The notes under the pieces are model-generated. The model saw only the letters and a list, made by a program, of their open reading frames with translations, searched no databases and was not told where the DNA came from. The position numbers and the translations under genes were made by a program. Shown here one piece after another: positions 16,866 through 54,301 of a stretch of 64,000 nucleotides of DNA (positions within the stretch are counted from its first letter, which is position 1; every line of letters begins with the position of its first letter). The DNA lies in the NCBI GenBank assembly GCA_944377415.1, contig CALWEW010000004.1:1681-65680 (forward strand), read 5' to 3'. This DNA is from an uncultured Clostridia bacterium. Lineage in GTDB: Bacteria > Bacillota > Clostridia > Christensenellales > UBA1242.

Positions 16866-17159
16866 AAAATAATTATATCATTTATTGATATAAATTTCAA
16901 CCATACAAATAAATTTTATATTTTAATGAGCGTGAGCACTAATTTAATTTTAGTGTGTGCATGCGTTCTTTTAAGTTGCTAAAAATGCAATAATAGAAAG
17001 GGGGCTTCATGCAATTTGCTACGCTATTGCGAGAGCGTTTTCGCACATTTTGACAAATTTGATAAAGTGTGCTATAAATAATTTGCAACAACATAAATTT
17101 AAATAATTAAGTTGTGTTTGCAACTTCATAAAATAAACAATATTAAAAGGATATAAAAA

Positions 17160-17888
17160 ATGGTTCAAATGTGTTTTTCAAGTTTCCTGCTCGCTCAAAT
17201 TTATGAAGAAACTGAACTAAAAAATAACAAAGTAATGTTTGATGACCTCGTAAACAAAGTGCAAAGTTCAAGGGACCCGAATCTTCTAGCATACATAAAA
17301 GAGGATTTAAAAAACACAACTCATCATCATTGCGAAAATCACGAGCACGGGAAGTGTAATTGCAAAGAGCCTTGCGCTCATTGTCATTGTAAAGAGAAAG
17401 CCGAGAAAGAAAAACAGCAGGGTGATGCTAATAATAAAAAAGTATTCGATTTAAACAATCGACAACAAGTCGCACAACTTGTGTCGGCATCGCTTGACTA
17501 TCTTTATGATTTAGGGTGTGTTGACCAAAGTTTTGCAGAGAAAAATGGCTATTATGGCATGACTTTTACTGTCTCCGAAGACATAGAGGGCTTTGCTTCA
17601 TCGGCATACCATTGTGCCTATGTTCGCAACAAACTCGAACATGTTAGCCCGCAAACGCTTAATACCCTTATTGCTTGCGAACCCGAGAAACCGCTTGCGG
17701 TTTTTACTGAAATGAACAAAAAGGAGCGTAAGCGCATCGCGCGCATGTGTTGCGATTTGCTAACCACAGACCTTGCGGAAATTTCGCATGACCCGTATAC
17801 AGATAAAAAAACCCTTATGCTTACTCCAGCAGGGCAGAGCGCTGCGCGCTATTTAGAGGTAAAGTTCAGCAATCAAAAGACACTTTAA
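17160..17888 (+). CDS. Hypothetical protein with His/Cys-rich putative metal-binding segment
   Basis: RBS AAAGGA; HHHCENHEHGKCNCKEPCAHCHC; TTGACA..TATAAA promoter-like sequence at ~17050-17078. Confidence 0.6.
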   Translation: MVQMCFSSFLLAQIYEETELKNNKVMFDDLVNKVQSSRDPNLLAYIKEDLKNTTHHHCENHEHGKCNCKEPCAHCHCKEKAEKEKQQGDANNKKVFDLNNRQQVAQLVSASLDYLYDLGCVDQSFAEKNGYYGMTFTVSEDIEGFASSAYHCAYVRNKLEHVSPQTLNTLIACEPEKPLAVFTEMNKKERKRIARMCCDLLTTDLAEISHDPYTDKKTLMLTPAGQSAARYLEVKFSNQKTL

Positions 17889-18009
17889 TAAACACAATAA
17901 TTATAATAGCACCATGACACTAAAAGTATCAAAGTACTTTAAACAAATAAATAACCAAAATGTGCTTTTTTTGTTTGCGTAGTGAACAAAGTTTTGATAT
18001 AATTTAAAT

Positions 18010-18474
18010 ATGAAAATTTTAGTTGTATCCGATTCTCACGGAAATATAGGTAATATTTTGACGGCGATTGACCGCGAACAGCCCGATGTTTTAATTCATC
18101 TCGGCGATGGTTTGCCAGACCTTGCGGATATTAAATTCAGCGGGCAAATTTACGCTGCTCGCGGGAATTGCGACCTTAACGGAAAGATTAAAACCATGGG
18201 CAAGGTGGAACATAACAAAAAAATCATTTTATACTTGCACGGTCATGAGTTCGATGTTTCGAAAGGTTACGAAAAATTAGTGAACTTCGCCACCGCACAG
18301 GGCGCAGATATTGTTCTTTTTGGGCATACTCATAGACCCGATTACTTCACTCGTAACGGCATAGTTTTTGTGAACCCAGGGGCAATGAAAGACCGCCAAA
18401 GCGGCACATACGCAACTATTGAATTTGTAAAAGATGTTGCAGAACCGATTATCAAGCATCATAAAATCGTTTAA
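18010..18474 (+). CDS. YfcE-family metallophosphoesterase
   Basis: SDSHG, HLGDG, RGNCD, HGH, FGHTH, NPG. Confidence 0.92.
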   Translation: MKILVVSDSHGNIGNILTAIDREQPDVLIHLGDGLPDLADIKFSGQIYAARGNCDLNGKIKTMGKVEHNKKIILYLHGHEFDVSKGYEKLVNFATAQGADIVLFGHTHRPDYFTRNGIVFVNPGAMKDRQSGTYATIEFVKDVAEPIIKHHKIV

Positions 18475-18475
18475 T

Positions 18476-18508
18476 AAAAAATGCGCACCTTCGGCGTGCG
18501 CGTTTTTT
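18476..18508 (+). terminator. Intrinsic terminator
   Basis: ATGCGCAC-CTTCGGC-GTGCGCGT-TTTTT. Confidence 0.75.
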
Positions 18509-18647
18509 GTGAGCAGTTTTTAAAACGCGCTCTACTTTTATATGATTGATATTTAAAGAAATTTTAAATAGTATTTATTAAAATATAACTGGTGTCTACG
18601 CCTTTGTTATTTTGAATGTTAAAAAAATTAAAAAAAGTAAAATTTTT

Positions 18648-18726
18648 CGAAAATTTGTTCGAAAATCGTTTGACTTTCAAATTTTTATCCATTATAATAG
18701 GAGCGTAAGTTTTCGAACAAACTTTC
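18648..18726 (+). promoter_or_regulatory. SigA-type promoter flanked by LexA (Cheo)-box-like sites
   Basis: TTGACT(18670)-17 bp-TATAAT(18693); CGAAAATTTGTTCG (18648-18661) and CGAACAAACTTTC (18714-18726), each one mismatch from GAAC-N4-GTTC; lies upstream of a repair gene. Confidence 0.6.
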
Positions 18727-18800
18727 TAATTTGTGAACTTGCAACAGTTTTTTAAAAAACTTTATGGCTCTCTTACTACTATAAAAAGGAGCGTGATAAG

Positions 18801-19553
18801 GTGTCAAATTCAATTGATTTTTCTGTTTTTTCTCAACCCTTTGATGAGCAAGAATTTCGGCGAAATGTGCTTGCTTTGCGCGAGCCTAAAAATGTTGCCT
18901 TTGATGAAAAAATTTTGAAAACGCCTAAAATTGTTCTCGGCATACGCGTGCCAATATTAAGGCAGATTGTTGCATCAGCCAAATCGCAGGCGGAAGAAAT
19001 TGCGCGCAATTTAAGAACAGATTACTACGAGTTTGAAATGCTCAAAGGGCTTTTCATCGCGCAAGTAGGCAAAGGCAGAACGAAAATTGAAAACAGCATC
19101 GCGGTTGATAAGGTACTTGAATTGCTCGAAAACTTTGTACCCGAAATTGATAATTGGTCAACTTGCGACTTGATGTGCGGAGACTTGCGCATTGTAGAGA
19201 AAAATCGTGAGCATTTTATTCCTTTCATTGATAAGTGCCTTGCTAGCGAGCGCGAATTTGTAATTCGCGTGGGAATTGTGCTTTTAATGAAATTTTATCT
19301 TGATGATGACCACCGCGCACAAACCCTTGAAAAATTAAAAAATTTAAAAAGCGACTTTTACTATGTGAACATGGCGCTAGGTTGGTTGATTTGTGAAAGT
19401 TTTTTGCACGACAAAGAGCAGACATTAAATTTTCTGGAAACTGCGGGAATTAGTCCTCTTGCAATAAATAAGGGAGTTCAAAAAATTCGCGAAAGTTACC
19501 GTGTCAGTCTTGAAGACAAGGCTCTTGTTTTGAAATATAAAAGGCAAATATAA
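18801..19553 (+). CDS. DNA alkylation repair protein (AlkD family)
   Basis: LGIRVPILR, IDNWSTCD, YYVNMALGWLI, KIRESYRV. Confidence 0.88.
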   Translation: MSNSIDFSVFSQPFDEQEFRRNVLALREPKNVAFDEKILKTPKIVLGIRVPILRQIVASAKSQAEEIARNLRTDYYEFEMLKGLFIAQVGKGRTKIENSIAVDKVLELLENFVPEIDNWSTCDLMCGDLRIVEKNREHFIPFIDKCLASEREFVIRVGIVLLMKFYLDDDHRAQTLEKLKNLKSDFYYVNMALGWLICESFLHDKEQTLNFLETAGISPLAINKGVQKIRESYRVSLEDKALVLKYKRQI

Positions 19554-19629
19554 AGAGCAAAGAGCGTAAAAGTTAAAATTTGTGCTCAAAATATTTTGCA
19601 CGAGATAAAATTTATTTTAGGAGAAAATT

Positions 19630-20235
19630 ATGGAAAAGTTTGATGTTAAACAAGCCTTAATGGAGTATCACCCAAAAGATGATAGAGAAGCACTTGCAGT
19701 GCGCGAAATTTTGAGATTTTTAAACGACAACCCCGACAGTGCTTTCGACAGAACAAATGCATTTGGGCACATAACAGGTAGTGCTTTGGTTGTAGATGAA
19801 AATGGAAGTGTATTGCTAAATCATCACAAAAAGGCAAATATTTGGATACAGTTTGGCGGGCATTGCGATGGTGAGCGCGATGTAAAGAAAGTTGCGTTGC
19901 GTGAAACTATTGAGGAAAGTGGGCTGAATTTAAAAGACCTTGAATTTATGACTAGCGGTATTTATTCATGTGCTATCTATGACATTCCTGCTAACCGCAC
20001 CAAAGGCGAACCTGCACACAAACACTATGACATAGTTTTCTTGATTAAAACAAAAAATCGCGATTTTCACCTTTCTTCCGAATCTACCGAATTGCGTTGG
20101 TGTAGTCCCACAGAAGCCATTGAACTTGTAAACGGTGATGCCGTGTGTGTAAGCATGATAGAAAGCAGTCGCAAGTTTTTTCGCTTGAACAAAGATTTGA
20201 AATTAAATAAAACACCTGCGCTTTATTTAGTATAG
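19630..20235 (+). CDS. NUDIX hydrolase
   Basis: GHITGSA, HHKK..W.QFGGHCDGE....VALRETIEESGL, H.HYD. Confidence 0.92.
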   Translation: MEKFDVKQALMEYHPKDDREALAVREILRFLNDNPDSAFDRTNAFGHITGSALVVDENGSVLLNHHKKANIWIQFGGHCDGERDVKKVALRETIEESGLNLKDLEFMTSGIYSCAIYDIPANRTKGEPAHKHYDIVFLIKTKNRDFHLSSESTELRWCSPTEAIELVNGDAVCVSMIESSRKFFRLNKDLKLNKTPALYLV

Positions 20236-31040: not shown

Positions 31041-31069
31041 TTGACAAAACCTAATTTTTTATATATAAT
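31041..31069 (+). promoter_or_regulatory. Consensus SigA promoter for the tRNA locus
   Basis: TTGACA(31041)-17 bp-TATAAT(31064). Confidence 0.85.
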
Positions 31070-31207
31070 CAACACATATACTTGCTTCGTTTCTAAATTT
31101 GTGTACAGCAAGTACTTGTTCTGTGTTTTGCGGCCGTGTCGCATACTTGTTTCGTATTTTTTAACAAGTGTATTGTAAATACTTATTTTTTATTTTGTAA
31201 CCAGCTT

Positions 31208-31247
31208 GCTGATGTGGCTCAGTCGGTAGAGCACTGCCTTGGTAAGG
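31208..31247 (+). pseudogene. 5' half of tRNA-Thr(GGT), truncated just after the anticodon loop (candidate attL)
   Basis: GCTGATG-TG-GCTC AGTCGGTA GAGC-A-CTGCC TTGGTAA GG followed by non-tRNA sequence; no T arm and no 3' acceptor strand. Confidence 0.85.
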
Positions 31248-31305
31248 ATTTCTGACTCCATTTTTGCCTTACCAACATAGCAGCAAAAAGTGGAGCAGTA
31301 AATAT

Positions 31306-31381
31306 GCTAACGTGGCGCAGTAGGTAGCGCACATCATTGGTAATGATGAGGTCGGCAGTTCGAATCTGCTCGTTAGCTCCA
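31306..31381 (+). tRNA. tRNA-Thr(GGT), complete, CCA encoded
   Basis: 76 nt cloverleaf: acceptor GCTAACG/CGTTAGC, D stem GCGC, anticodon arm CATCA-TTGGTAA-TGATG, T arm GGCAG-TTCGAAT-CTGCT, 3' TCCA. Confidence 0.95.
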
Positions 31382-31385
31382 TAAC

Positions 31386-31439
31386 AAGAAAACCCTTTAT
31401 TTATCGCATTTTTGTCGATTTATAAAGGGTTTTCTTTTA
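31386..31439 (+). terminator. Terminator after tRNA
   Basis: AAGAAAACCCTTTAT...ATAAAGGGTTTTCTT-TT. Confidence 0.8.
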
Positions 31440-31538
31440 TTAATAGATTGTGCTTATAAACGGAGCAACGCTTATTTTTGCACTAGTGAAAATTAAGTGC
31501 GTAAATTTTAATAATATTGTCATTTGATATTCTATTAA

Positions 31539-31591
31539 AAACTGCCTAAAACTGCCTAAATTTGTGTAAATGGTCCCGAATGGTCCCGTAA
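31539..31591. repeat. Paired 10-bp direct repeats, candidate integrase arm-type binding sites
   Basis: AACTGCCTAA x2 and AATGGTCCCG x2, located between the tRNA locus and the integrase. Confidence 0.6.
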
Positions 31592-31641: not shown

Positions 31642-32925
31642 CTAGTGTTTTTTAAATTTATAAACTTCTTCAGCACTTACTTTCGTTCCATTTGGCCAAA
31701 CAATACCGCCACCCACTTTATACTCAGCGAAAACTTTTTCCTTGCCGAATCTATTAATTAAATCATCCACTTCAGGTATTGATTTCGACAAGGTATGCAA
31801 AACTTCAAAAAATAAAATTAATTTTACTTTTACATCTTTGTTACTATTTTGTTGATATTTTTCAAATATTTGTTTAGGTACACTATAAAGTCTATATAAC
31901 TCTTCTAACTCATCCTCTTTAAAAACACCTTCCGACATTAAATATTTTTTATTTTTGTAAACATCCATAGTTTCTTTACTTAAAAAATTTAAGTTATCTA
32001 GTGTATCTGTGCTTAATAAATTAATAAATTTGCTTCGCTTATTATTCAAAAGTTTCAAACATTTTGTTTTAAATTCTTCATATTTAATGTACTCGAACTC
32101 TTCTTTACAATGCAATTTTTTACTCAAATCATTATATAAAGTTTCCATTAACTCAGATAAAGCAAATAGTATAGTGTCTAAATATATCATCCTTTCGTTT
32201 TTCTTTTTCTTTCTATTTTCAATAATTATAAATATATTGCATATACCTGTAGCTAAAATACCTGTACCAATAGCAAATAATAGATTATAGAGTAAATTAA
32301 TTATATTATAAAATTTGGCGCTTATCATAATTAAATTTATACCCAATAATATTAAAACAACTGCATATTTGTATTTTGTTTGTTTGAAACAAAAAAATAT
32401 AAATAAGGTAAAAACTAGGATTATTAAATCCCAAAAATAAGGTTGATTTGCAAAATAATAAATGTATAAAGGTAATATTAATATTATCGCTAAAAAAGAT
32501 AATATTGGTTTTAAATATTTTGTTAATTTATTATATTGATTGAATAGTGTCAATAGTAAAGAGCTCAAAACAAACAACACCCAAGAATGTAGTGGATTAA
32601 ACAAAAGGGAGTTTATTGTTGTTACACCAAAGTATAGTGCTATTGTAGAGGCAATACATATTAAGGAGGATAGCACAATTAATATAATAAATACCCAATT
32701 TATTATTTTCAATTTTTTTTCTTTTTTACTTATAGCTTTATTTAAATCGTTTATTTGGTTTATTATATCCTGTTCTTGTTCCTTTGTGGGGCTTTTGTCA
32801 GCGCTTCGCACTCGTTGCTCATATTTAAAAATGGAAGGCTTTTTTAAGTCTATCAGGATAAATATTAAAATTAAACCCCATGCTATAATTATTCCATAAT
32901 TTGATATTATATCTATAAAACTCAT
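31642..32925 (-). CDS. Hypothetical multi-TM membrane protein (ICE cargo)
   Basis: About seven TM segments followed by a soluble helical domain; extremely AT-rich. Confidence 0.7.
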   Translation of the reverse strand: MSFIDIISNYGIIIAWGLILIFILIDLKKPSIFKYEQRVRSADKSPTKEQEQDIINQINDLNKAISKKEKKLKIINWVFIILIVLSSLICIASTIALYFGVTTINSLLFNPLHSWVLFVLSSLLLTLFNQYNKLTKYLKPILSFLAIILILPLYIYYFANQPYFWDLIILVFTLFIFFCFKQTKYKYAVVLILLGINLIMISAKFYNIINLLYNLLFAIGTGILATGICNIFIIIENRKKKKNERMIYLDTILFALSELMETLYNDLSKKLHCKEEFEYIKYEEFKTKCLKLLNNKRSKFINLLSTDTLDNLNFLSKETMDVYKNKKYLMSEGVFKEDELEELYRLYSVPKQIFEKYQQNSNKDVKVKLILFFEVLHTLSKSIPEVDDLINRFGKEKVFAEYKVGGGIVWPNGTKVSAEEVYKFKKH

Positions 32926-32994: not shown

Positions 32995-34368
32995 TTACAT
33001 CTCATCCTGATGTTGTTTTTTCTGTGCTTTCTTTTCTGCAAGTAGTTTTTCTAGCATTATAATTTCAGGATCGGTTTCTATTTCATCTAAGTCCCTTTGT
33101 AATGCTGGTGTTTGTTTTTTCTGCTCTAATGCTTTAAATTCTGCCATTTTTTCGTTATTAAATAAATCATTTAGTTTATCTGTTGCCTGTTTATAATAAC
33201 TTTTGTCTATGCTGTTATATACTGTTAATGTAGTCTTTACCGATTTGTGTCCTAGCAAAGCTTGAATAACTTTTGGATTCTCATTAGCTTCAAAAAGCAT
33301 GTTTGAATAAGTATGTCTTAGGGTATGAAAATGTATTTTCCCAAAGAACCCGTGTTTTTTCGCTAATCTATCAAAAGCAACTCTAGTTCCATAGTAGGTT
33401 CTTACGCTTCCATCATCATTAGAGAACACTATGGAAGATGGCTTTAATAAATCCACGCCTGATAGTTGTTGCTTTACCCATTGTTGTTTTTTCCAATCTT
33501 TTAATGCATCAAGCAATATATCAGGAACAGGCACTTCTCGTACCGAGCAAGCAGTTTTAGTGTCGCTTATTACTGTTTTCCTAGATATTATTTCGCCTTT
33601 ATCATCAAAAATTGGCACTTGTGTTATACCGTGCTGAACATTAATCGTTTTATTTTCAAAATCAATGTTTTCCCATTTTAAAGCTAGAATTTCGCCAATC
33701 CTAAGACCTGCAAACATGGCAGTCATACAAAGTGTTTTGAGAAACGGGTGTCCGTTTATTGCCATCAAAAATTTCATTCTGTATTCTGCAGGGATCGCTT
33801 TATATTCATTTTCCTGGTCATACAGTCTTACATTTCTACTTCTAACTTTTATTTGATAGGTAGGGTTAGTAGTTACCAAACCGCTTTCCATCGCATAATC
33901 AAAAAATTGATTGAGTAAAAATTTATTTTTCTTAACAGTATTTATTGCTAAACCTTGCGCCAGCAATTCATTTATGAGCTGTTGAATAGTTGCTTTGCTA
34001 ACATTTTCTATTTGCATATTACCAAGATATGGTTTTATATGTAAATTAAAATTTCTAATATTTCCCTCAAAAGTTCTTGGTGTAACTGATGGTTTTTTGA
34101 ATATTAACAACCAATCTAAAAACAATTCCCCGAAATTTTTATTAGAATACAAGGAATTTTTAAATATATTCATTTTCCCGGTTAGTTCAACTAGCTTTTT
34201 TGATGCTTCCGCTTTAGAATGAGCGCGAACTTTTTTGCGACTTTTTGTACCATCTGCATTAGTAACCCATATTGCTCCGACCCAAGTTCCATTCTTTTCC
34301 TGATAGATAGAGCCTTCGCCATTGCCTCGCCTTGTTCTTTGAATTACTTTATTTTTCTTCGTTGCCAT
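32995..34368 (-). CDS. int: Tyrosine recombinase/integrase
   Basis: RRGNGEGSIY arm-binding N-terminus; GLRIGE, KT, HTLRHTY, LLGH, VY. Confidence 0.95.
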   Translation of the reverse strand: MATKKNKVIQRTRRGNGEGSIYQEKNGTWVGAIWVTNADGTKSRKKVRAHSKAEASKKLVELTGKMNIFKNSLYSNKNFGELFLDWLLIFKKPSVTPRTFEGNIRNFNLHIKPYLGNMQIENVSKATIQQLINELLAQGLAINTVKKNKFLLNQFFDYAMESGLVTTNPTYQIKVRSRNVRLYDQENEYKAIPAEYRMKFLMAINGHPFLKTLCMTAMFAGLRIGEILALKWENIDFENKTINVQHGITQVPIFDDKGEIISRKTVISDTKTACSVREVPVPDILLDALKDWKKQQWVKQQLSGVDLLKPSSIVFSNDDGSVRTYYGTRVAFDRLAKKHGFFGKIHFHTLRHTYSNMLFEANENPKVIQALLGHKSVKTTLTVYNSIDKSYYKQATDKLNDLFNNEKMAEFKALEQKKQTPALQRDLDEIETDPEIIMLEKLLAEKKAQKKQHQDEM

Positions 34369-34603
34369 TTTCTGCTCCTAGTTTCTTCATTTGCCAACTA
34401 ACAAAAGCGACTATGCTTACAATTTTTCTTTTTCCAATTTGCGTAGTAGGGAAATTTTTATTATTCATTAAGTTGCGTACATTGTCGCGCCCTAAACCGG
34501 TGATTTTTATTATATCTTCGCATTCTAAATATTCTTTACCATACTTGTTTGAAAGCCTAGCTACTTCTGCAGTTATTAAATCTTCTATTTTTATGTTCGA
34601 CAT
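34349..34603 (-). CDS. xis: Excisionase-like HTH protein
   Basis: 84 aa, overlaps the int start; YLECEDIIKITGLGRDNVRNLM..FPT.QIGKRKIV. Confidence 0.75.
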   Translation of the reverse strand: MSNIKIEDLITAEVARLSNKYGKEYLECEDIIKITGLGRDNVRNLMNNKNFPTTQIGKRKIVSIVAFVSWQMKKLGAENGNEEK

Positions 34604-34612
34604 AATATACCT

Positions 34613-35359
34613 TTATTTTAATAAAAAACTTTGTTGTCCATTAGCATCACAGCCCTCAAGTCTGTTCTTTGCTATCTTGTACCACTTAGGGTTAATTTCT
34701 ATGCCTATGTAATTTCTATTTAGATTTTTACAGGCAATAGCGGTCGTGCCAGAGCCAAGAAAGCAATCAAGCACCACATCGTTTTCCTTACTGCTATTGC
34801 GTATCAAGGTTTCAATAATGCGTAAAGGTTTGCAGGTAGGGTGATGATATGCGTTTTTATCATTTATGTTAGTTGGGCTTCTAAATACCGTGCGCGCATC
34901 TTCATAGGATTTAGGATCGCAAACATTTGCGCCTTTGAAATACAAGCAGTATTCAACATCATTGAGGTATTGATGGTTGTATAGCGGCATCACATTAGGC
35001 TTATTCCAAAATAATAGTTCAAAATTAAGTTTTTGTTTGTTTACGAAGTGGTTTAAATACATGGGAATTTGTTTTCTATTACACCAAATATAGATATTAG
35101 GAATTTTCATTATTCTCATAAACTCATCAAATATTTCTTCTCGAATACCTTGGGTTATATTATTATCAATTAGTTCTTGGTTGAGTTTATAAATTCCTTT
35201 TGTTATGTCATTTTTTATGCTATCAATTTTTTCTTGAGTTTTTGATTTACCATCTATTTGATAAGGTGGATCTATAACGATTAAATCTATTGATTTGTCT
35301 GGAATTTCTTTTATAAGTTCATAACAATCGCCGAGATAAATGTTGTTTGTTTCTAACAC
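34613..35359 (-). CDS. Orphan N4/N6 DNA methyltransferase (beta class)
   Basis: GDCYELIK, DPPY, HPTCKP, VLDCFLGSGTT, IGIE; GTG start at 35359 after GAGGA. Confidence 0.92.
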   Translation of the reverse strand: MLETNNIYLGDCYELIKEIPDKSIDLIVIDPPYQIDGKSKTQEKIDSIKNDITKGIYKLNQELIDNNITQGIREEIFDEFMRIMKIPNIYIWCNRKQIPMYLNHFVNKQKLNFELLFWNKPNVMPLYNHQYLNDVEYCLYFKGANVCDPKSYEDARTVFRSPTNINDKNAYHHPTCKPLRIIETLIRNSSKENDVVLDCFLGSGTTAIACKNLNRNYIGIEINPKWYKIAKNRLEGCDANGQQSFLLK

Positions 35360-35667
35360 TACATTTCCTCTGATTTGTATTTTTCTCTTAACTCGCATTT
35401 GTAAATATACGAACCTATACAAGACGATGCATTATCTTGATATACATCCATATTCAAACACCATTGGATATAATCGTTATAGATTTTTTTAATTATATTT
35501 TTATCACGCATTAAATAGCCTAATTCTTTATCATCAAAGTCTTCATTTTTAAGGCATTCATAGATTGCATTAAGAAAGGGAGACCTTGAATCAATTAAAT
35601 CTTTTTCTAAATTTATATTACTAAATTCATTTTCAATTTGAGAAAGAAATTTTTGTTTCTTGTCCAT
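35359..35667 (-). CDS. Hypothetical protein (ends SEEM)
   Basis: RBS GAGG; tightly packed operon. Confidence 0.7.
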   Translation of the reverse strand: MDKKQKFLSQIENEFSNINLEKDLIDSRSPFLNAIYECLKNEDFDDKELGYLMRDKNIIKKIYNDYIQWCLNMDVYQDNASSCIGSYIYKCELREKYKSEEM

Positions 35668-38251: not shown

Positions 38252-38482
38252 TCAATTATCCTTTTCCTTAATGTAATTTAAAAATTTTTCTATTTGTTCA
38301 GCATTTGTGTAATAGGCTTGTTGTATTGCTACGCCTATCATGTTATAGAAATAGTCATAATTTGTATTTGCGGTAACCTTTAAGTTTTTTCGTATCAATC
38401 TCAACATAACTAGTAAATCATTTTTCGTATTGATATCTAGTATCTCTAAAAAATTCACCATTTCACCACTAAGTCTTAGCAT
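38252..38482 (-). CDS. Small hypothetical protein
   Basis: RBS GAGGTGG; overlaps the upstream stop; fills the operon. Confidence 0.6.
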   Translation of the reverse strand: MLRLSGEMVNFLEILDINTKNDLLVMLRLIRKNLKVTANTNYDYFYNMIGVAIQQAYYTNAEQIEKFLNYIKEKDN

Positions 38483-39474
38483 TGTTCCACCTCGTTTTTA
38501 TTTTGCGATTTATTGCTTTTAATTTCGCCTGCAACGGCTTGCTCCTGATTGTCTTGAGTATTTGCCTTGGTTTGTCCATTATCGCTCGAAATGGCGCGTT
38601 TTTGCTCCCTTAAATGCGTTTGTAGAGCTGGTTCTATAATTGAAAGCATTTGATAACTTACACTTCTAATTAGTTCTGTATTATATTTGAATTTTTTTAT
38701 GTTATCATCAGAGAATTTAGCAACATCATCAAAATTAAAATCATTTAATGGTAAGCCTAGTCTGTTTGAAACGGTGAAGGCGATACTTTCAGACTCCAAC
38801 TTATTAATTGCTGCATAATCTTTATCTGTTAGTCCTTTGAAATTGTTTCGCATTCTTGAATTACTCAAAATATCACTTATTTCTTTTACCAATGCAGACA
38901 ATGTATCTTCATAGGACATTCCTAGTTTAACTATCACTTTGAATTCAGTTAAATTACGATAACTTTTTAAGCCTGTATCATCAGGTATTTCTTGATATTC
39001 AAAAGTCCAGCCTCTAGGTATTCTTTCTAGTGCATCTTTCAAAACTTTAAAATTATCTTTAATAATTTCAGCATTGCATTGAAATTGATACATAGGATTA
39101 CCGCTGGTCTGAGAAACATCAAAGACATGGTTTATTTGAAATCCATATTCTTGTTTGTCTTGTGTGGCAACAACATTTCCTTGCTCATCTAATATTTGAA
39201 CTTCTTTTGATTCTTTAACTGGAGCGATAATTTTTATTGATTTTTCGCCCTTATTTATGTTCCTATGATAGTAATTCCAAACTTTCATACTGTTTACACA
39301 AGTTGCTTTTGGATTTTGTGATAAAATTAGCATTAAATTGTTTATTGAAAATGAATTTAGATTACTTATAGCAGATAGTATTTCTTTATACTTGTTTGAT
39401 TTTATTAAGTTCATAAAAGTTTCATCAGCTTGTTTTACTAAATCTTCTGTTGTAATTGTTTTGTTTTCAATCAT
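38476..39474 (-). CDS. ArdC-like ssDNA-binding (antirestriction) protein
   Basis: FSINNLMLI.SQ.P.AT.V...W...R.I.KGEKSI.IIAP, VFDVSQT.G, KLESESIAF.V. Confidence 0.85.
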   Translation of the reverse strand: MIENKTITTEDLVKQADETFMNLIKSNKYKEILSAISNLNSFSINNLMLILSQNPKATCVNSMKVWNYYHRNINKGEKSIKIIAPVKESKEVQILDEQGNVVATQDKQEYGFQINHVFDVSQTSGNPMYQFQCNAEIIKDNFKVLKDALERIPRGWTFEYQEIPDDTGLKSYRNLTEFKVIVKLGMSYEDTLSALVKEISDILSNSRMRNNFKGLTDKDYAAINKLESESIAFTVSNRLGLPLNDFNFDDVAKFSDDNIKKFKYNTELIRSVSYQMLSIIEPALQTHLREQKRAISSDNGQTKANTQDNQEQAVAGEIKSNKSQNKNEVEQC

Positions 39475-39547: not shown

Positions 39548-39961
39548 ATGTTTAGTGAAAAATATTTTAATATAAAATCGTATAATGATTTTTATATGGC
39601 AGTTGGGAAAATAGTAGAAGCCGTACAACAATGGGAAAGACGTTATAAACAATTTGTTCAATTAATTGGAATTGAAATTGAATGTTTAGGTACAGCTACA
39701 TTAGGGAAAATCAACAATAAATTGTTAAAGGAAAATAAGATTGACCAAAGAACTTATAACAATTTAAATAAAGTGATTGAAATGAGAAATTATATTTATC
39801 ACGACTTTTTCCTTGATAAACCTGTACCACTAAATGATTCCGTAGAAAATAAACTCAATGAAATATATTTTTATATTTTTGAAGCTACCGATGTTGTAGA
39901 AAATTTAATAGACCAATTAACAGGTTGCAATTGTAAAAGACCAACTATATTTGATAATTAA
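39548..39961 (+). CDS. Small helical protein with HEPN-like RxxxxH motif
   Basis: ATLGKI..MRNYIYHDF; own promoter-like TTGACT..TAAAAT and RBS AAGGTGG; opposite strand to the transfer operon. Confidence 0.6.
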   Translation: MFSEKYFNIKSYNDFYMAVGKIVEAVQQWERRYKQFVQLIGIEIECLGTATLGKINNKLLKENKIDQRTYNNLNKVIEMRNYIYHDFFLDKPVPLNDSVENKLNEIYFYIFEATDVVENLIDQLTGCNCKRPTIFDN

Positions 39962-42569
39962 TTTTATTAAACACCTCTTGCACGAGCTCGCTAGCATGAA
40001 TATTAATTGTGGTTCTGTTTTGAGTTGAAACTATTAAAAACGCATAGCCTCGCGGTAGATTTGTTATAATATCACTTTCCGTTTCATTTATTTGCCCAGA
40101 TTTTTCATATAAACCACATAAGTCATTCATGTCGCTTGGTGGCAGATTAAATATAAGAGAATACTGGCTAACATTTATAATCGCTGAGGCTTTTCGGGCA
40201 AGTTCTAAACTGCCTGTAAAGTCTTTTATATTTTGTGTAATAACAATTTGCATTCCGTTATATTTTCTTATTCGTTTAGCCAATTGGTACATAAAATCTA
40301 GAGCAATGGGATATTTTTCATCAATAAATACATGGGCTTCATCTATAGCAATAATTATCTTTCTGTTTGTGTTATTTCGCTCGTTATACTCTCGGTTTTT
40401 AATAATTTCGTTGTCTAACCACTTTAAAACGAGTAACATTTGAGCATTTGCAATTAAGTTGTTTCTATTGGATAGTAATTTTTGGAAATTAAAACAAACA
40501 AAATTTTCTTGTGGTTCAAAACTTGTATACCCGTTCCATAATGCAGAATTTCTTGCCCCTGTATTAAATTTACTCAAATAGTTGGAAAGTGTTTTCAAAC
40601 ATGATTTTGCGTATTCATCCTGTTCTTTTTCAACTTTTTTATCTACTAGTTCTACTAAATTTTGTAGAGTTGGGTAATCTTTTGCTTGAAGTTTTGATAT
40701 ATCTGTTTTTGCTGTTATTTTTTTGTTTCTATAGACTTCCAAAATTATTTTATTTAATAGTTCTAGGCTGTCTGAATTAATGCCTGTTAATACAAGCTTG
40801 AAGAATTCTTCTAGAAATTGTAGGTGCAGGTAAAAGGAATTACTTGTCCCATCATTATTTTCATCATCTAAACTTTTTATTATGTGTAACGGGTTAATTA
40901 TTCCATCTTTACTGCTTGAAACATCTAACACTTTACCGTTTAGATTCTTTGCTAAGGTTCCGTACTCATTTTCTGGATCTAATATAAAAACACGAGCATT
41001 GTCTGCCGCTAAATTTGCAAGCAGAGTTTTTGTTGCAAAAGATTTTCCGCTACCAGATTTACCTATGATTACCATATTAGAATTAACCCTTTCATCTGTC
41101 CTTTCAAAAGGATTTAAAAAAGCTAACAATTTGTTTTCGCCAATTAAGAATCCATCTTTATCCATAACTATTTCCCCAACAAAAGGGAAACATGCTGATA
41201 AAACTGATGAATTCATTCCACGGCATTGTTTAATAGGGGAATCTTTTGTAATAAGACTTGTCATATAACCATCTATTTGTCTACCAAATAGCTCATTAAA
41301 CTTGAAGCCTAATTCTTTTAATTTTTGCCTTACTATTTTCTTATTTTTATTTTGATTCGGCTCATCATATACAGTTATAACTAATGAAACATCAAAAAAG
41401 TTTTCATTATCGTTTTGTAAGCCTATTAATGTGGATTGCAGGCTAGATAAATGAGTTTCTTTGTCTATTTGGAAACTAGTTTTACCTAAGTCTTTTTGAC
41501 TTAATAATTCATTAATTGCCGTGTCTATGCGTTTAATTGCTTTTATTTTTTCAACTGGTTCAGCCTTTAACACTACTTTTGTATTTGGTAGGTCAAACAA
41601 TGCTTGTCCCCAAGCATTGCTTACTTGTAGTGGGTAATCCGTTATCAAAAAATGGCTTACTTGTTCTTTATCTTGTATTACTTTATTGGTTTTAAATTTA
41701 ACTTGATTTGGTAGAATATCAGCGAAGTTATTATCTATTAATTCTCTTTCATCAAAATTCTTTGTGTAAGTATATTTTATAAATTTATAGAGTTCGGTAG
41801 TATCCAGCGTATGTGCTGTTATATTATTGTTTGTTAAGATATTTTCAATTTTACTTAATACACTTTTTAAGTTTTCTATGCTTAAATCATGTACCATTAA
41901 ATAATAATTACTTGCACATATTTTTTCTTTTGAGTTTATGTAATCAATTGTATTAATTCTATCTTCTATTAATTTAGTGCGAGAACGCAATTCAGGTTCA
42001 TTTAAGACATTATTTTCCTTAGCTGAGATAAGACTTTTTAATTTATTTAACTCACTTTCAATATAGTTATCCAAAATAAGCGGTTCATCTACTTTTATAA
42101 TTCCTATGCTTTGGTAAACTCCAATACTTTTTAACACGCTAGCAAATACATTATCTATAATAAAGTTTTGCTTGTTTTCGTTTAGTAAATTGAAATTAAT
42201 TGGCGTTACTTTTATTACACCTGTATAGTAATTATTTTTTTGATAAATGATGCCATTTTCTATCTTTAAGTATGGAGTAATTGAAGCTATATTAGACTTT
42301 CCGTGTTTCGCTTTACTAAATTGTTTTTTTGCGAATATGAATTTTAGGAAATAGCCAAGCATTTGATATAAACGCAGTTCGCCAAATGAAATATACAATG
42401 GGGCGACTACAATTAAAATGATTAATGCTATTATCCATTTTGAACTTAAATTACTTGATAAAGCCAAACAAATAAGGGCTAGTGCAATAAGCGCAATAAA
42501 GACATCGATTAATGTGATGTTTCTGTAAAATTGAAGCTTAACTTTTGTGTTTTTAGGTATTATTCTCAT
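39945..42569 (-). CDS. virB4: VirB4-like conjugation ATPase with fused PrgI-like membrane N-terminus
   Basis: IIPKN.KVK plus two TMs; NSNMVIIGKSGSGKS, ILDPENEY, IDEAH, RIRKYNG..IVITQ. Confidence 0.93.
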   Translation of the reverse strand: MRIIPKNTKVKLQFYRNITLIDVFIALIALALICLALSSNLSSKWIIALIILIVVAPLYISFGELRLYQMLGYFLKFIFAKKQFSKAKHGKSNIASITPYLKIENGIIYQKNNYYTGVIKVTPINFNLLNENKQNFIIDNVFASVLKSIGVYQSIGIIKVDEPLILDNYIESELNKLKSLISAKENNVLNEPELRSRTKLIEDRINTIDYINSKEKICASNYYLMVHDLSIENLKSVLSKIENILTNNNITAHTLDTTELYKFIKYTYTKNFDERELIDNNFADILPNQVKFKTNKVIQDKEQVSHFLITDYPLQVSNAWGQALFDLPNTKVVLKAEPVEKIKAIKRIDTAINELLSQKDLGKTSFQIDKETHLSSLQSTLIGLQNDNENFFDVSLVITVYDEPNQNKNKKIVRQKLKELGFKFNELFGRQIDGYMTSLITKDSPIKQCRGMNSSVLSACFPFVGEIVMDKDGFLIGENKLLAFLNPFERTDERVNSNMVIIGKSGSGKSFATKTLLANLAADNARVFILDPENEYGTLAKNLNGKVLDVSSSKDGIINPLHIIKSLDDENNDGTSNSFYLHLQFLEEFFKLVLTGINSDSLELLNKIILEVYRNKKITAKTDISKLQAKDYPTLQNLVELVDKKVEKEQDEYAKSCLKTLSNYLSKFNTGARNSALWNGYTSFEPQENFVCFNFQKLLSNRNNLIANAQMLLVLKWLDNEIIKNREYNERNNTNRKIIIAIDEAHVFIDEKYPIALDFMYQLAKRIRKYNGMQIVITQNIKDFTGSLELARKASAIINVSQYSLIFNLPPSDMNDLCGLYEKSGQINETESDIITNLPRGYAFLIVSTQNRTTINIHASELVQEVFNKINYQI

Positions 42570-42759: not shown

Positions 42760-44196
42760 ATGTTAAAAGAGGAACTCGAATACTTGGTAAAATCACTAAA
42801 AGCAATAAAAGCAGAACAACAGAGTATTGAAGTAAAGGAAGCTAATGTTGATTGTCCTAAAATATTTGATACTTTATCTGCTTTTTCAAATCAAGATAAT
42901 GGTGGTATTATTGTATTTGGTGTATCTGAAAGTCAAAATTTTGAAATTATAGGTGTTTACAATGCTCAAGATTTGCAAAAAAAAGTTAATGAACAATGTA
43001 AACAAATGGAGCCTATAGTAAGACCTCTATTTACAGTATGTGAAATTGATGGGAAAGTTGTTGTTTCTGCAGAAATACCAAGTGTTGAAGTTGCTGAAAG
43101 ACCTGTTTTTTATAAAGGTAGAGGCAAATTAAAAGGTTCCTATATCCGAGTTGGCGAGTCTGATGAGCCAATGACCGAGTATGAAGTATACAGCTATGAA
43201 ATCTATAGAAAAAGAATCAAAGATGATTTAAGAACAGTTGAAAATGCGACACTGGCCGTATTGGATGAAGTTTTATTAAAAGAGTATATCCAAAAAGTTA
43301 GATACGAAAGACAGAATTTAATAGATAATGTTGATGATAAAACATTATTAGAACTTATGGGGGTTACAAAGCATGGCATTCCAACAATTGCTGGTTTGAT
43401 GACATTTTGCAAATATCCTCAGGCTTACTTTCCTCAATTATGCATTACCGCAGTATCCTTGCCCTCTAATGAAATGGGTAAAGTAGGAGAAAATGATGAA
43501 AGATTTTTAGACAACAAGAGAATATGCGGTTCAATAAAAGATATGCTAAATAGTGCAATAGATTTTGTAATAAAAAATTCAAGAATAAAAACCATTATAA
43601 AAGCTGATGGTCAACGAGAAGATCAACCGGAATATCCTGTGAAAGCAGTAAGAGAGGCTATATTAAACGCATTGGTGCACCGCGATTATAGTGTTTACAC
43701 CGAAAATATCCCAATTAGAATTGAAATGTATCGTGATAGATTAGAAATACGCAATCCTGGTGGTATTTATGGACAAATTTCAGTTGATGACTTGGGAAAA
43801 GTAAAACCAGAAACTCGTAATCCAAGTTTAGCGAACATACTAGAAATTTTAAAAATAACAGAAAATCGATATTCTGGTATACCAACTATTAACCAAGAAT
43901 TTAAAAATGCACATCTTCCTAAACCCACTTTCCTTGTCGTTCATGGCGAATTTATGGTGGAAATGAACAATGGGCTTATGATTGATATGGCAACTGATAG
44001 CACCACGGTTATGGATAAGGTTTTATCATATTGTTCAAAGCCAAGATCAAGAAAAGAATTAATAGAATTTACAGGATTTAGTCGCTATTATCTTACGGCC
44101 ACTATACTTGAACCTTTATTAAAAAGTGGAAAGTTGAAAATGACTTTACCTAATGTTCCTAAAAGCAAGTATCAAAAATATTATAGATCGAACTAG
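42760..44196 (+). CDS. Schlafen/AlbA_2 domain + HATPase_c_4 (RecG C-terminal-like) + HTH protein
   Basis: EQQSIEVKEA, LSAFSN..GGIIVFGV, AVREAILNALVHRDYS, RNPGG, TRNP.LA, P.SKYQKY. Confidence 0.88.
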   Translation: MLKEELEYLVKSLKAIKAEQQSIEVKEANVDCPKIFDTLSAFSNQDNGGIIVFGVSESQNFEIIGVYNAQDLQKKVNEQCKQMEPIVRPLFTVCEIDGKVVVSAEIPSVEVAERPVFYKGRGKLKGSYIRVGESDEPMTEYEVYSYEIYRKRIKDDLRTVENATLAVLDEVLLKEYIQKVRYERQNLIDNVDDKTLLELMGVTKHGIPTIAGLMTFCKYPQAYFPQLCITAVSLPSNEMGKVGENDERFLDNKRICGSIKDMLNSAIDFVIKNSRIKTIIKADGQREDQPEYPVKAVREAILNALVHRDYSVYTENIPIRIEMYRDRLEIRNPGGIYGQISVDDLGKVKPETRNPSLANILEILKITENRYSGIPTINQEFKNAHLPKPTFLVVHGEFMVEMNNGLMIDMATDSTTVMDKVLSYCSKPRSRKELIEFTGFSRYYLTATILEPLLKSGKLKMTLPNVPKSKYQKYYRSN

Positions 44197-44211: not shown

Positions 44212-45576
44212 CTAATCTTTTTTTGTTTTCTTTTTTATTACTTGTGCATGGTTAAATACTGTATCGCCTTTGATTACATTATTCATTCTTGGAATAAAGT
44301 TTTTACCAACACCTACAAGGCCGCCTGATACCAAGTCTTTCATTACACCAAGTGGCATAGAAGCAATTCTGGTAGGCATTTTTGCATATCTTGCTGTTTT
44401 TGTTGTATTTTCATTACTTTCAACAGCTTTGCTAACAGGTGTTTTAAATGAGCTTTTTACACCACCAGTGAAACCATTAGATTTGTTTTCATCAACAAAA
44501 TGCTTTCCACCTAATACCGCACCACCAAGAGCTAGTGCAGTTGTTCCAACAGTTCTCGTTATATGAGTTCCTGTTCTCATGTTTGCAATAAGTTCTCGTG
44601 TTTCATTACCGCCAGCCTGACTGCCGGTAAGATTTGCAATTACTAGGTTAGCTTTTGTAACCGCAAAGGCTCCACCAATAATAAATAGTATCTTTACTAT
44701 TCCATCCTTAAAGGCATCATTGAAGAAACTGATTTGTTGTACTTGTGGTATAATAATAAAGAATAAATTCATCGCTAGTATTATTCCATAGGCACTAAGG
44801 ACCTTGCCGATAAGCATTTCTTTCCATTGTTTAAATCTTACACCATCATCTGTTGGAATGGTAGAAACACTTATCGGCGAAACAAGGAAGAGAAGTATTA
44901 TATCAAATATTCTTTGTATAAAACTTATTGCACTCATTACGAACATAATAAGAATCGCAAGTCCACCAATAATTCCTACAAAGAAATCTAAATCTCTAAT
45001 TTTATAATATTGGCTTACAACATCCATATTGGTATAATCTAATTCGCCGGTGATAAACATTCTTTCAATTTCTTCTCTTTCCGCCTCATCACCGATATAA
45101 GCATAATAACCACACGTTACAAGTATTTGACCGCCAATTTTTGCATCTGTTCCTGTTTCAGTTATGTATGGATTCATACTTTGATTGACAGCTCGCACAA
45201 CTGTGTTTGATAAAGCGATACCCGCAAGTAACACAAAAGGTACTATTAAGAAAATTATAAAACTATGGCAAGCCTTTGCTAAAATCGCACCTTTACTTTT
45301 CTTGTTTTCGCCATGCGCATATTCACTTCTTATGATTGCTACAAGAACAAATACTACAAGCAGTGCAACAGCAATTAGCATAATGATTAAGAAAGATTTT
45401 TTAACAACATCAGACAATAAAAAGTTAGATAAAATGTCTGTTTCTGTACCATTAATATTTATAGGCTCTACACCTGAAAGTGTATAGAAAATATCTTTTA
45501 TAAAATCAATAATGTAACAAACGCTTTTTTGTATTGAATACAGTAAATCAAAGAACCAATCGGTTAACCAATCCAT
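44212..45576 (-). CDS. VirB6-like ICE transmembrane protein (Mbov_0396-like)
   Basis: Multiple TMs; QRIFDIILLFLVSPI.VST...D.G.RFKQW. Confidence 0.75.
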   Translation of the reverse strand: MDWLTDWFFDLLYSIQKSVCYIIDFIKDIFYTLSGVEPININGTETDILSNFLLSDVVKKSFLIIMLIAVALLVVFVLVAIIRSEYAHGENKKSKGAILAKACHSFIIFLIVPFVLLAGIALSNTVVRAVNQSMNPYITETGTDAKIGGQILVTCGYYAYIGDEAEREEIERMFITGELDYTNMDVVSQYYKIRDLDFFVGIIGGLAILIMFVMSAISFIQRIFDIILLFLVSPISVSTIPTDDGVRFKQWKEMLIGKVLSAYGIILAMNLFFIIIPQVQQISFFNDAFKDGIVKILFIIGGAFAVTKANLVIANLTGSQAGGNETRELIANMRTGTHITRTVGTTALALGGAVLGGKHFVDENKSNGFTGGVKSSFKTPVSKAVESNENTTKTARYAKMPTRIASMPLGVMKDLVSGGLVGVGKNFIPRMNNVIKGDTVFNHAQVIKKKTKKD

Positions 45577-46093: not shown

Positions 46094-46387
46094 TTATGTA
46101 GTTACTTGTGTGCTAACCCAATCTTGTAATATTGGCATCAAAACTTTAAGTCCAACTATGAGAACGAAAATCACAACAAATCCAATAATTGCACCTATTA
46201 AATCTTTCTTTGCTTTCTCGCGAGAACCTGCTTCATCAGCCTTTGCTAAACGCACGCCAAGGATGATGCAGTATATTGTTCCTATGGCTCCAACCAAACC
46301 TATTGCGGGCCAAAGAATTGCATTTATAACTTCTAATACCGGAGCGAGTACAGGATTAAAATCCACAGCTCCTAACAAATTTAACAC
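46094..46387 (-). CDS. Pilin/VirB2-like conjugal transfer protein (Mbov_0395-like)
   Basis: GTG start after GGAGG; two TMs around LAKADEAGSREKAKKDLI. Confidence 0.75.
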   Translation of the reverse strand: MLNLLGAVDFNPVLAPVLEVINAILWPAIGLVGAIGTIYCIILGVRLAKADEAGSREKAKKDLIGAIIGFVVIFVLIVGLKVLMPILQDWVSTQVTT

Positions 46388-46444
46388 GAAATAAAACCTC
46401 CAAAATTTAATTAATTCTCTCAATCAATTTTTGAAGATATTTTG

Positions 46445-53099: not shown

Positions 53100-54301
53100 A
53101 GTTCTATAACTCCTTGTTCTATCAGTACTTCAATGTTTAATTGTCGTAATTTTTTCATATGTTCCTCAAAATAATTAAAGGCTTCTTTTTGCGTTTTTTC
53201 GCTTAAATAAAGGCTTTTTTCTAGTAAATAGCTGTTTTTATTTCGCTCTATTCGTTTCTTTACAAGTCTATTGCTTGTTTGAAATTGATTCTTGTTTATT
53301 TCATACTTAAAACTCAGTAAAAACTTGATAATTTGATTGCCTAAACGCCTATATAAATCTTGTTGATATTTTTTACTTAAAAGATACTTTTCGGGGGCAA
53401 TTTTGCTACTTTCACACATCTTTAAAATGCTTTTGTCTTTTTCATTAATTAAATTTAAAAATTTTTGATATTTTGCTTGTAAATTTTTGTTTTGTTTAAT
53501 GATTTTTATAGTTAAATTATCTATTTCAGTCCGTAAAAATTGCATATTATCACTATCATAACTTAATCGACCATTGCTCGGTAGTTTGATAATGAGATTT
53601 TTCATAGTTTTCAAGACTGAGTTTTTTAGAAAATTTAAAGATAAATTTGCCTTAAAATCACTATTTATCTCTTTTCTTGTGTCTATTATCTCTGTATTAT
53701 TGTTTAACAAATACAATTCAGTTCTTATCTTTGCTTTTTCAATAGAATTTTTAGTAATTTGCCCATACGAAAAGCATTTTTTATTTTGCGTTTTCCTAAA
53801 TTTTGTAGGTTCTTTTTCATAAAAAGCAAAATGTATGTGCCTATGGTCTGTGTTTGTATGAAATCCAGCACACCAGACTATGTTTTTAGGTTCCAAACCT
53901 GCGCTAGAGAGAAATCTTGGAAATTCATTTTTCATTAATAAATATGCTTTTTCATAGCTATTACAATTCTCTTTTCCAAACATTTCTTCAAAAGAAATTA
54001 GTCCGTGCCAAATAACACTTTTTGTTAATCTAAATCCTTGTTTTAACTCCTTTATTCTTTCCTGTGAACATAAGCCATTTTCATCAAACAAGCCCGTGCT
54101 TTTTTCATTATTTCCTGAATAGTCTACAAAATCTATTTTTGCTTTACTTCCATCGTTAATATAACCTAAGTAGTTGTATGGCTGCTCGCAAGCATAAAAT
54201 TGCCTTTCTTTGAGATATTTTTTTACCAAATTATTATTTAAACCTAAGCCATCTAAACAAGGTACATAATGAATAAAGAAATTAACTTTCGGTATTGCCA
54301 C
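53096..54301 (-). CDS. MobL-type HUH relaxase
   Basis: DFVDY, GLF, VIWHGLISF, FHTNTDHRHIHFAFYEKEP. Confidence 0.88.
   Translation of the reverse strand: MAIPKVNFFIHYVPCLDGLGLNNNLVKKYLKERQFYACEQPYNYLGYINDGSKAKIDFVDYSGNNEKSTGLFDENGLCSQERIKELKQGFRLTKSVIWHGLISFEEMFGKENCNSYEKAYLLMKNEFPRFLSSAGLEPKNIVWCAGFHTNTDHRHIHFAFYEKEPTKFRKTQNKKCFSYGQITKNSIEKAKIRTELYLLNNNTEIIDTRKEINSDFKANLSLNFLKNSVLKTMKNLIIKLPSNGRLSYDSDNMQFLRTEIDNLTIKIIKQNKNLQAKYQKFLNLINEKDKSILKMCESSKIAPEKYLLSKKYQQDLYRRLGNQIIKFLLSFKYEINKNQFQTSNRLVKKRIERNKNSYLLEKSLYLSEKTQKEAFNYFEEHMKKLRQLNIEVLIEQGVIEL

Follow-up and report, generated by a model that had tools for sequence, protein, structure and literature searches.

A split host tRNA-Thr(GGT) gene and a complete element-borne tRNA-Thr(GGT) at the attachment site of a conjugative element from an uncultured Clostridia bacterium

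Results

We analyzed a stretch of DNA of 64,000 nucleotides (hereafter, the window) from an uncultured Clostridia bacterium, in which one end of an integrative and conjugative element (ICE) lies in the middle of a host gene for tRNA-Thr(GGT). The window corresponds to positions 1681–65680 of contig C4 of the source genome, G000, a 1.26-Mb draft in 52 contigs that is 96% complete. At the left attachment site (attL), the 5′ half of the host gene, that is, positions 1–40 of the tRNA, occupies 31208–31247 on the + strand and forms the host arm of the site. It runs from the acceptor 5′ strand GCTGATG through the D arm and the anticodon-stem 5′ strand to the loop TTGGTAA, followed by GG. A first-pass annotation of the window had described a half gene stopping 2 nt after this loop and, as a matter of fact, no closing 3′ strand was found after 31247, the element sequence present there (ATTTCTGACTCC...) being unable to close the anticodon stem. 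At 40/40 positions, the half matched the beginning of the intact tRNA-Thr(GGT) of G015, a genome of the same genus, so that it cannot be a chance resemblance. Neither ARAGORN nor Rfam (E ≤ 1) called a tRNA at 31208–31247.

Past the break, the element begins with a spacer of 58 bp (31248–31305, + strand) and continues with a complete tRNA-Thr(GGT) with encoded CCA (31306–31381, + strand). This second tRNA, also noticed at first pass, was identified by ARAGORN and scored 69 bits against the Rfam tRNA model. It was the sole tRNA-Thr(GGT) that ARAGORN found in the assembly. As previously noted, its anticodon loop is that of the broken gene while its acceptor, D, and anticodon stems are different; over the 40 nt of the 5′ half, there are 9 differences between the two genes, all located in these stems. 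It is oriented as the broken gene and sits 58 bp inside attL, between the crossover core and a set of candidate arm-type repeats (see below). A hairpin with 21-nt arms, 90% complementary, and then a T-rich run follow at 31386–31436 (+ strand). This is the probable terminator of the element tRNA, as read from the inverted repeat and the sequence, and it was absent from the sites returned by the terminator scan.

The spacer holds an inverted copy of the core, CCTTACCAA (31267–31275), and a pair of hairpin arms (31256–31267 and 31283–31295). Folding of the fragment, spacer, and tRNA as one RNA gave an uninformative z-score of −0.99, and Rfam returned no spacer match in the att region of the window or in 8 other loci, yielding only the tRNA and sub-threshold noise. 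At the equivalent position, other genomes have spacers of ~50–75 bp. In six of them (L054–L058 and L041, from G194, G349, G299, G312, G407, and G254), interleaved inverted repeats were noticed by eye, GGGG..CCCC and GCCGA..TCGGC, the second pair being replaced by GCGTCC..GGACGC in G407. These could form an H-type pseudoknot in RNA or be protein-binding repeats in DNA. A MAFFT alignment of these spacers was out of structural register. Most other spacers have a short hairpin 5–20 nt before the tRNA.

The broken gene had been described as lying under a consensus promoter. Such a promoter does exist, a sigma-70-type TTGACA-17-TATAAT with 12/12 matches at 31041–31069 (+ strand), and it is a candidate for the host promoter of the tRNA locus. 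However, it sits 139 nt upstream of the fragment, and the site directly before the fragment is a weaker, promoter-like one (TTAACA-17-TATTTT, 9/12, 31161–31189, + strand). The promoter scan found no promoter-like site on the + strand of the window's spacer. In G359, G373, G049, and G306, the fragments are also preceded by consensus promoters. We noticed three direct repeats of ~17 nt, TACTTG(C/T)T..CGT.T.T, at 31079–31160 between the consensus promoter and the broken tRNA, and a small GC hairpin at 31129–31143. An exact 13-nt repeat, CTAAATTTGTGTA, flanks attL on both sides, at 31093 and 31556.

It had been predicted that the missing 3′ half would mark the far end of the element, and this is what we observed. 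A motif search over the whole assembly found this half once, on contig C12, where CTTGGTAAGG is followed by the anticodon-stem 3′ strand, the variable loop, the T arm, CATCAGC, T, and CCA. The 3′ half ends with CATCAGCTCCA and is followed by the host terminator and host genes. Joined together, the 5′ half of the window and the 3′ half of C12 yield the intact tRNA-Thr(GGT) of G015, save one base in the T loop. Since both halves match the G015 gene, it is a host gene of the genus type that was cut in its anticodon loop. On the left of the core, C12 carries cargo of low G + C content (GC, 0.21–0.33), with a YobI-like nucleoside triphosphatase (NTPase) and tail-fibre-like open reading frames (ORFs). 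On the right come the terminator, a helix-turn-helix gene, a flavin mononucleotide oxidoreductase gene (GC 0.42–0.44), and MnmE. ARAGORN found no tRNA anywhere on C12. The YobI-like protein is a P-loop NTPase of 1275 amino acids (aa) encoded in a segment of GC 0.21–0.26 (region L001, 6704–10531). A second, shorter tyrosine integrase (314 aa; region L001, 14799–15743) lies on the host side of C12, 4 kb beyond the right attachment site (attR) and beside MnmE.

Comparison of attL with attR defined the common core. Identity between the two junctions extends over 11 bp in all, CCTTGGTAAGG (31237–31247), namely the anticodon loop and 2 bp of stem on each side, so the ~7–9 bp proposed at first pass was an underestimate. 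On this comparison, the crossover is placed within these 11 bp. Because the common core is only 11 bp, neither attL nor attR rebuilds a tRNA. The 3′ end of the element tRNA was unique in the assembly, both motif-search probes matching once only.

Further into the element, two copies of AAAACTGCCT (31538–31557) and two copies of AATGGTCCCG (31569–31588) are candidate arm-type sites of the P′ arm. The repeat AATGGTCCC is common to both ends of the element. On C12, one direct and one inverted copy lie immediately within attR, and it is also present in the homologous right end of G011 and between the tRNA and the integrase gene at loci L020 and L021. Read in this way, the attachment site of the excised element (attP) would be ordered as P arm, core, 58-bp spacer, tRNA, terminator, P′ arm, ORF, and integrase gene. 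The right ends also share a motif, (C/T)AGAGCA(C/A)AA, ~25 nt before the core, which looks like a relic of a tRNA D stem and position 26.

Several observations indicate that the second tRNA is the element's and not the host's, its position being one of them. It is unlike the genus type: its nearest relative is the element-borne copy of G191 (92% identity), and the next-nearest are promoter-bearing genes from other families of the class (86–87%). Moreover, a contig of 596 nt from a run of another study, X3, has the same left flank and fragment with 1 difference, then continues with 58 different letters and a second 5′ half that has 5/40 differences. A third sequencing run shows yet another continuation past 31245. 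Last, an identical element tRNA of 76 nt, with the same type of spacer, was found behind four different 5′ halves in G016, G036, G310, and G191, whose hosts belong to three genera and two families. The element tRNAs of the window and of G191 read CA TTGGTAA TG instead of having the CC..GG core; it is tempting to speculate that this variant may protect the element tRNA from further integration.

The layout recurs in related genomes. Nine loci encode integrases 64–76% identical to that of the window, three of which have no downstream DNA. The core or a tRNA-Thr lies downstream of the integrase gene at four of the nine: tRNA-Thr(GGT) follows ~300 nt after the gene at L016, L020, and L021, and the core is found at the contig end at L019. 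L020 has two 5′ halves and then a full tRNA, and L021 one 5′ half and then a full tRNA. Integrases of ~50% identity adjoin tRNA-Thr in G006, G007, G011, G014, and G022, three of them being truncated or interrupted by a stop. The first-pass annotation had raised the question of such an association, and homologous integrases do sit beside tRNA-Thr(GGT), several with the fragment-spacer-tRNA order; the GCTAACG-type tRNA itself (92%) is in the related element of G191.

Among the 41 nearest genomes, the 5′-half probe matched two to three times, with a spacing of ~100 bp, in G016, G012, G006, G019, and G022, and G007 has a degenerate fragment. In G006, no orphan 3′ half was found with a 35-nt degenerate pattern allowing up to 3 mismatches, all 3 of which are already used by that genome's own tRNA. 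On contig C14 of G016 (L036, ~860–900), we noticed remnants of the T arm and acceptor strand of a tRNA ~130 bp past the orphan 3′ half, then a terminator of the kind that follows element tRNAs.

We also surveyed the order, using 401 sampled genomes, two cores 80–110 bp apart as the pattern, and the reversed pattern as a control. The pattern gave 30 matches in 24 genomes, and the control gave 0. Judged on their first 80 letters, 27 of the 30 matches (22 genomes) consisted of a fragment followed by a non-tRNA spacer; the remaining three (G230 twice and G282) were tandem full tRNAs. At least 22 of the 401 genomes thus have the layout, this being a lower bound because G000 itself, whose element tRNA has a different core, was missed. 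ARAGORN found tRNA-Thr(GGT) after the spacer at 17 of the 18 survey loci examined, the 18th running off its contig. In every fragment compared, tRNA homology stopped 1–2 bases past the last A of the loop.

Both ends are present on a single contig in G191 (C1, 336 kb). This contig starts with a fragment, a spacer, a tRNA (139–214), the gene of a 49.5% identical integrase, and a relaxase gene. Next come a core at 16981, a spacer, a tRNA (17061–17136), and the gene of a second integrase (38% identical), and then a core at 20090 followed by an orphan 3′ half of host type. The junction reads element right end, core, spacer, and a GCTAACG-type tRNA 92% identical to that of the window. Incidentally, the unit of ~3.1 kb between the cores (16981–20140) holds little beyond a spacer, a tRNA-Thr(GGT), and an integrase gene, and it may be a minimal integrative element.

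The situation on contig C8 of G011 (L033, 1789–10720) was more intricate. An integrase gene and an intact tRNA-Thr are on the − strand, and an orphan 3′ half lies 5.3 kb off on the + strand, after a right end homologous to that of G000 over the whole aligned length. We found no simple history for this contig; an inversion, a chimeric assembly, or a collapse of fragment and tRNA are possible.

Stacks of one to three 5′ halves occur at several related loci. On contig C4 of G171 (L039, 2330–2620), we observed five tandem, shortened 5′ halves (~36 nt) with 21-nt spacers and a period of 57–59 bp, followed by a full tRNA-Thr(GGT).

As for the surroundings of attL, housekeeping genes (ProRS, GltX, SUF, and glycosyltransferases; GC 0.34–0.48) lie to the left of ~31 kb, and GC drops there from ~0.35–0.40 to ~0.30 on the right. 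The host part also encodes a BspA-type leucine-rich-repeat protein of 1828 aa with Listeria-Bacteroides repeats (7129–12615). On the element side, an ORF of 427 aa without family match (31642–32925, − strand) stands between the att region and the gene of a 457-aa tyrosine integrase (32995–34368, − strand; Phage_integrase, 1.3e-23, with SAM_3 and Phage_int_M), which lies 1.6 kb from the element tRNA. The start of the integrase gene is overlapped by an 84-aa ORF (34349–34603, − strand) that is AlpA-like with an E-value of 0.0073, below the Pfam cut-off, which is a mere hint at a possible excisionase.

Profile matches delineate a conjugative element body from 34613 to the window end at 64000. It encodes a DNA methylase (34613–35422), an ArdC-like protein (38476–39474), a VirB4-like ATPase (39945–42569; NF045975, 588.2 bits for a cut-off of 590), a conjugal protein of 454 aa of the MMCAP2_0566 family (44212–45576; matching the MMCAP2_0566 / Mbov_0396 ICE families), a pilin of a type IV secretion system (T4SS) (46094–46423), a coupling protein (50940–53099; CD1115 family, 289 bits for a cut-off of 250), a relaxase of the MobL/MobP type (53096–54301), and an RHS-repeat protein (57800–64000) that continues beyond the window and exceeds 2066 aa. 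A Schlafen/AlbA_2-HATPase_c_4 protein (42760–44196) is part of the element cargo. The ICE gene set, that is, integrase, relaxase, coupling protein, and VirB4-type ATPase, is present in one element. The transfer genes had their best scores against models of Mycoplasma ICEs, NF045975 being such a model. Mycoplasma ICEs use a DDE transposase; here, the transfer module sits with a tyrosine integrase instead.

Discussion

We estimate at roughly 85% the probability that an ICE with a tyrosine integrase split the host tRNA-Thr(GGT) at an 11-bp core and carries a complete, different tRNA-Thr(GGT). The host gene is split at this core, the element tRNA is intact and the sole one of its kind in the assembly, and the same layout recurs with related integrases. 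The integrase would recombine the element with the host gene inside the anticodon loop via CCTTGGTAAGG; the window (attL) would retain the host promoter and 5′ half, and C12 (attR) the 3′ half and terminator. Replacement by a complete element tRNA had been proposed in the first-pass annotation, and the far-end test, the unduplicated 3′ end, and the recurrence all support it. The element tRNA probably compensates for the broken gene, in which case the host would need it to decode ACC and ACU. We see an even chance that its transcription starts at the host promoter and crosses the dead 5′ half, RNase P then freeing the tRNA; use of the host promoter is favored by the co-orientation, by the negative outcome of the promoter scan on the + strand of the window's spacer, and by the consensus promoters before the fragments of relatives. 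By carrying a whole tRNA, the element would be freed from having to match the stems of the host tRNA, and its host range would be widened. Manual pairing indicated that, were the host 5′ half joined to the 3′ half of the element tRNA, 3 of 5 anticodon-stem pairs would be mispaired. Like the first-pass annotation, we infer both a benefit in host range and a dependence of the host on the element tRNA.

A number of observations weigh against this reading. First, attL is on C4 and attR on C12, the ICE runs off C4, and its two ends are unjoined. Second, the assembly also encodes tRNA-Thr(TGT) and tRNA-Thr(CGT), as found by ARAGORN. Third, L017 and L018 have neither core nor tRNA within 4 kb of their related integrase, and a related integrase of G011 adjoins an intact tRNA without a fragment, so that the integrase family may also work, or end up, in classical form. 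Fourth, no empty site was found by tblastn of 12 flank and element proteins of G000 against 10 regions from other genomes. That search yielded integrase matches and one weak match of a left-flank ORF (27–37% identity) in G007, in the other orientation, indicating that the species representatives are too rearranged for an empty site to be visible by synteny. Two exact-pattern scans of metagenome contigs, for an empty site or other hosts, returned 0 records, and there was no intact-site contig and no excision junction in the contigs of four runs, contigs being unable to show rare forms. Finally, no integrase or mobile gene was found in the 7 kb downstream of the G171 array, and array units are near-identical in G254 (two units) and in G171, from which it follows that arrays can also grow by tandem duplication.

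Other explanations must be weighed too. The ICE of the window and the cargo of C12 might be different elements at a shared site, in a tandem or nested array, and the tRNA would still be split and replaced. We hold this to be unlikely, although it is the strongest of the alternatives. As a precedent, G191 has two tandem elements between its 5′ fragments and a single orphan 3′ half, and the stacked fragments of G016, L020, and G325 point to serial insertion. Besides, C4 and C12 are unjoined, and the C12 cargo, with its tail-fibre-like ORFs and YobI-like NTPase, is without conjugation genes. Yet, the attL of the window has a single fragment, no more than one complete tRNA-Thr(GGT) and a single orphan 3′ half were found in the assembly, and the same AATGGTCCC repeats are found at both ends, all of which argue against an array.

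It is improbable that the element tRNA is cargo with another role, for instance in meeting codon demand during transfer or in evading an anticodon nuclease, its match to the broken gene being incidental. It has been proposed that the tRNAs of phages counteract defences based on tRNA cleavage (PMC10865867), and the element tRNA does have a different anticodon stem. However, throughout more than 20 genomes, the element tRNA shares its isotype and anticodon with the broken gene without exception, and it is always beside the core and in the same orientation. Such constancy is predicted by compensation and not by other roles.

The first-pass annotation had itself offered an alternative, namely, that the fragment is the scar of an older event and that the ICE integrated classically into the second tRNA, the host's gene being restored by the element. 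We judge this very improbable. The attR would then have duplicated the 3′ end of the second tRNA, and the assembly is without any second copy of that part; what lies at the element/host boundary is a matching 3′ half of host type, accompanied by the arm repeats of the window. Stacked and degenerate 5′ halves in relatives do indicate that old scars persist at the locus, and G011 provides a related integrase beside an intact, fragment-free tRNA. But the second tRNA departs from the genus type and is closest to the G191 element copy (92%) and to genes of other families (86–87%), and in another strain this flank and fragment lead into a different spacer and tRNA. Least probable of all is an assembly artefact, in which contigs of a metagenome bin were misjoined at a shared tRNA sequence: the draft does have 52 contigs, and G011 C8 shows an odd, inverted full tRNA and orphan 3′ half, but the same type of junction occurs in many independent assemblies, some with contigs of hundreds of kb, and the contig of an independent run repeats the flank-fragment-spacer layout.

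If the split and replacement of the host gene occurred as we propose, then an element tRNA that keeps the CC..GG core would be the landing site (attB) for the next element, which would give rise to stacked 5′ halves. The stacks indeed suggest serial replacement, and the case of G171 indicates that 5′-half arrays can persist after element loss. One might go further and imagine a relay, wherein, across the order, each incoming element breaks the tRNA-Thr(GGT) of its predecessor and puts its own in its place, always downstream of the same host promoter. This is a tentative idea, and we lean slightly against it. Were it true, a stack of dead 5′ halves would be a dated record of past invasions and, once an element had decayed, the cell would be left with a foreign gene as its sole source of tRNA-Thr(GGT). 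The version of this tRNA used by these bacteria would then be determined by mobile elements and not by vertical descent, and a minimal unit of ~3 kb with integrase and tRNA, as in G191 (C1, 16981–20090), would suffice.

Our findings extend a strategy, shown experimentally only in actinobacteriophages, to a conjugative element of uncultured gut bacteria, and it is common in the order (at least 22 of 401 sampled genomes). From the stacked 5′ halves, one can read how a single site was invaded time after time, and they suggest horizontal turnover of a core translation gene. There may be practical consequences as well. Programs that map genomic islands rely on an intact tRNA at the integrase end and on a 3′ tRNA fragment that has been displaced; with elements such as these, they may misplace the boundary or take the element tRNA for the host's. 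In addition, for bacteria in which genetic engineering is difficult, the combination of a short core and a tRNA supplied by the element itself could be used as a broad-host integration module.

How does this element compare with known systems? The general picture of classical tRNA-targeting integrative elements is said to be that given by Williams in 2002. The present element resembles them by its tyrosine integrase, crossover in the anticodon loop, integrase gene near the att site, and arm repeats on both sides. It differs in that identity ends 2 nt past the loop, the element has no 3′ half at the junction, no tRNA is rebuilt, and a whole gene is carried. Indeed, the core is followed in the element by ATTTCTGACTCC..., where a tRNA-restoring element would have the anticodon-stem 3′ strand. 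Boilgate and Omega are examples of the classical form, attP carrying the 3′ part of the tRNA and the gene being restored (PMC10865867).

The mechanism proposed here is already published, for phages (PMC10865867) and, as a statement, for ICEs of Pasteurellaceae (PMC6028734). Our literature search, mostly at the level of titles, returned no account of such integration for conjugative elements of gut Firmicutes, nor of 5′-half stacks. The Pasteurellaceae ICEs are described as disrupting tRNA-Leu at a repeat of 10–13 nt in the anticodon loop, with an intact copy at the ICE end (PMC6028734); PMC6861422 reads their junctions differently. ICEs of the ICEPmu1/ICEMh1 type thus share with ours a short anticodon-loop repeat at both ends (PMC6028734) and, compared by description only, differ from it in integrase family, conjugation module, phylum, and tRNA. 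A likely non-actinobacterial case cited in PMC10865867 is prophage Lj965 of Lactobacillus johnsonii, in which, according to that paper, no tRNA is rebuilt and a cognate tRNA is carried; it differs in being a prophage.

The closest likeness is to the tRNA-dependent lysogeny of actinobacteriophages such as Fionnbharth, LeBron, Gaia, and others (Guerrero-Bustamante and Hatfull, mBio 2024, PMC10865867). As reported in that study, these phages have a tyrosine integrase, an attB located in a tRNA gene, a core of 8–17 bp, and no functional tRNA at attL or attR, and a phage tRNA of the same isotype was demonstrated by experiment to be needed for viable lysogens. In both cases, a tyrosine integrase gene lies next to the att site, attB overlaps a tRNA gene, the core is short, and no tRNA is rebuilt. 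Arm-type sites flank the core in the phages (PMC10865867), and candidate arm repeats are present here. Altogether, four of the five defining features of this type of lysogeny are found in our element, the fifth being the experimental requirement for the tRNA, which was established in the phages (PMC10865867) and which we infer here. The differences are, on one side, phages of actinobacteria and, on the other, a conjugative element with T4SS and relaxase, in a gut bacterium of small genome, using Thr(GGT). The sections of PMC10865867 considered here make no mention of stacked 5′ halves such as those described above. The Fionnbharth tRNA lies at another place in the genome, with a demonstrated promoter of its own (PMC10865867), whereas here the tRNA is inside attP, 58 bp from the core and co-oriented with the broken gene. 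What is distinctive of the present elements is thus a tRNA placed inside attP beside the core, consensus promoters before the broken halves, and stacks of 5′ halves.

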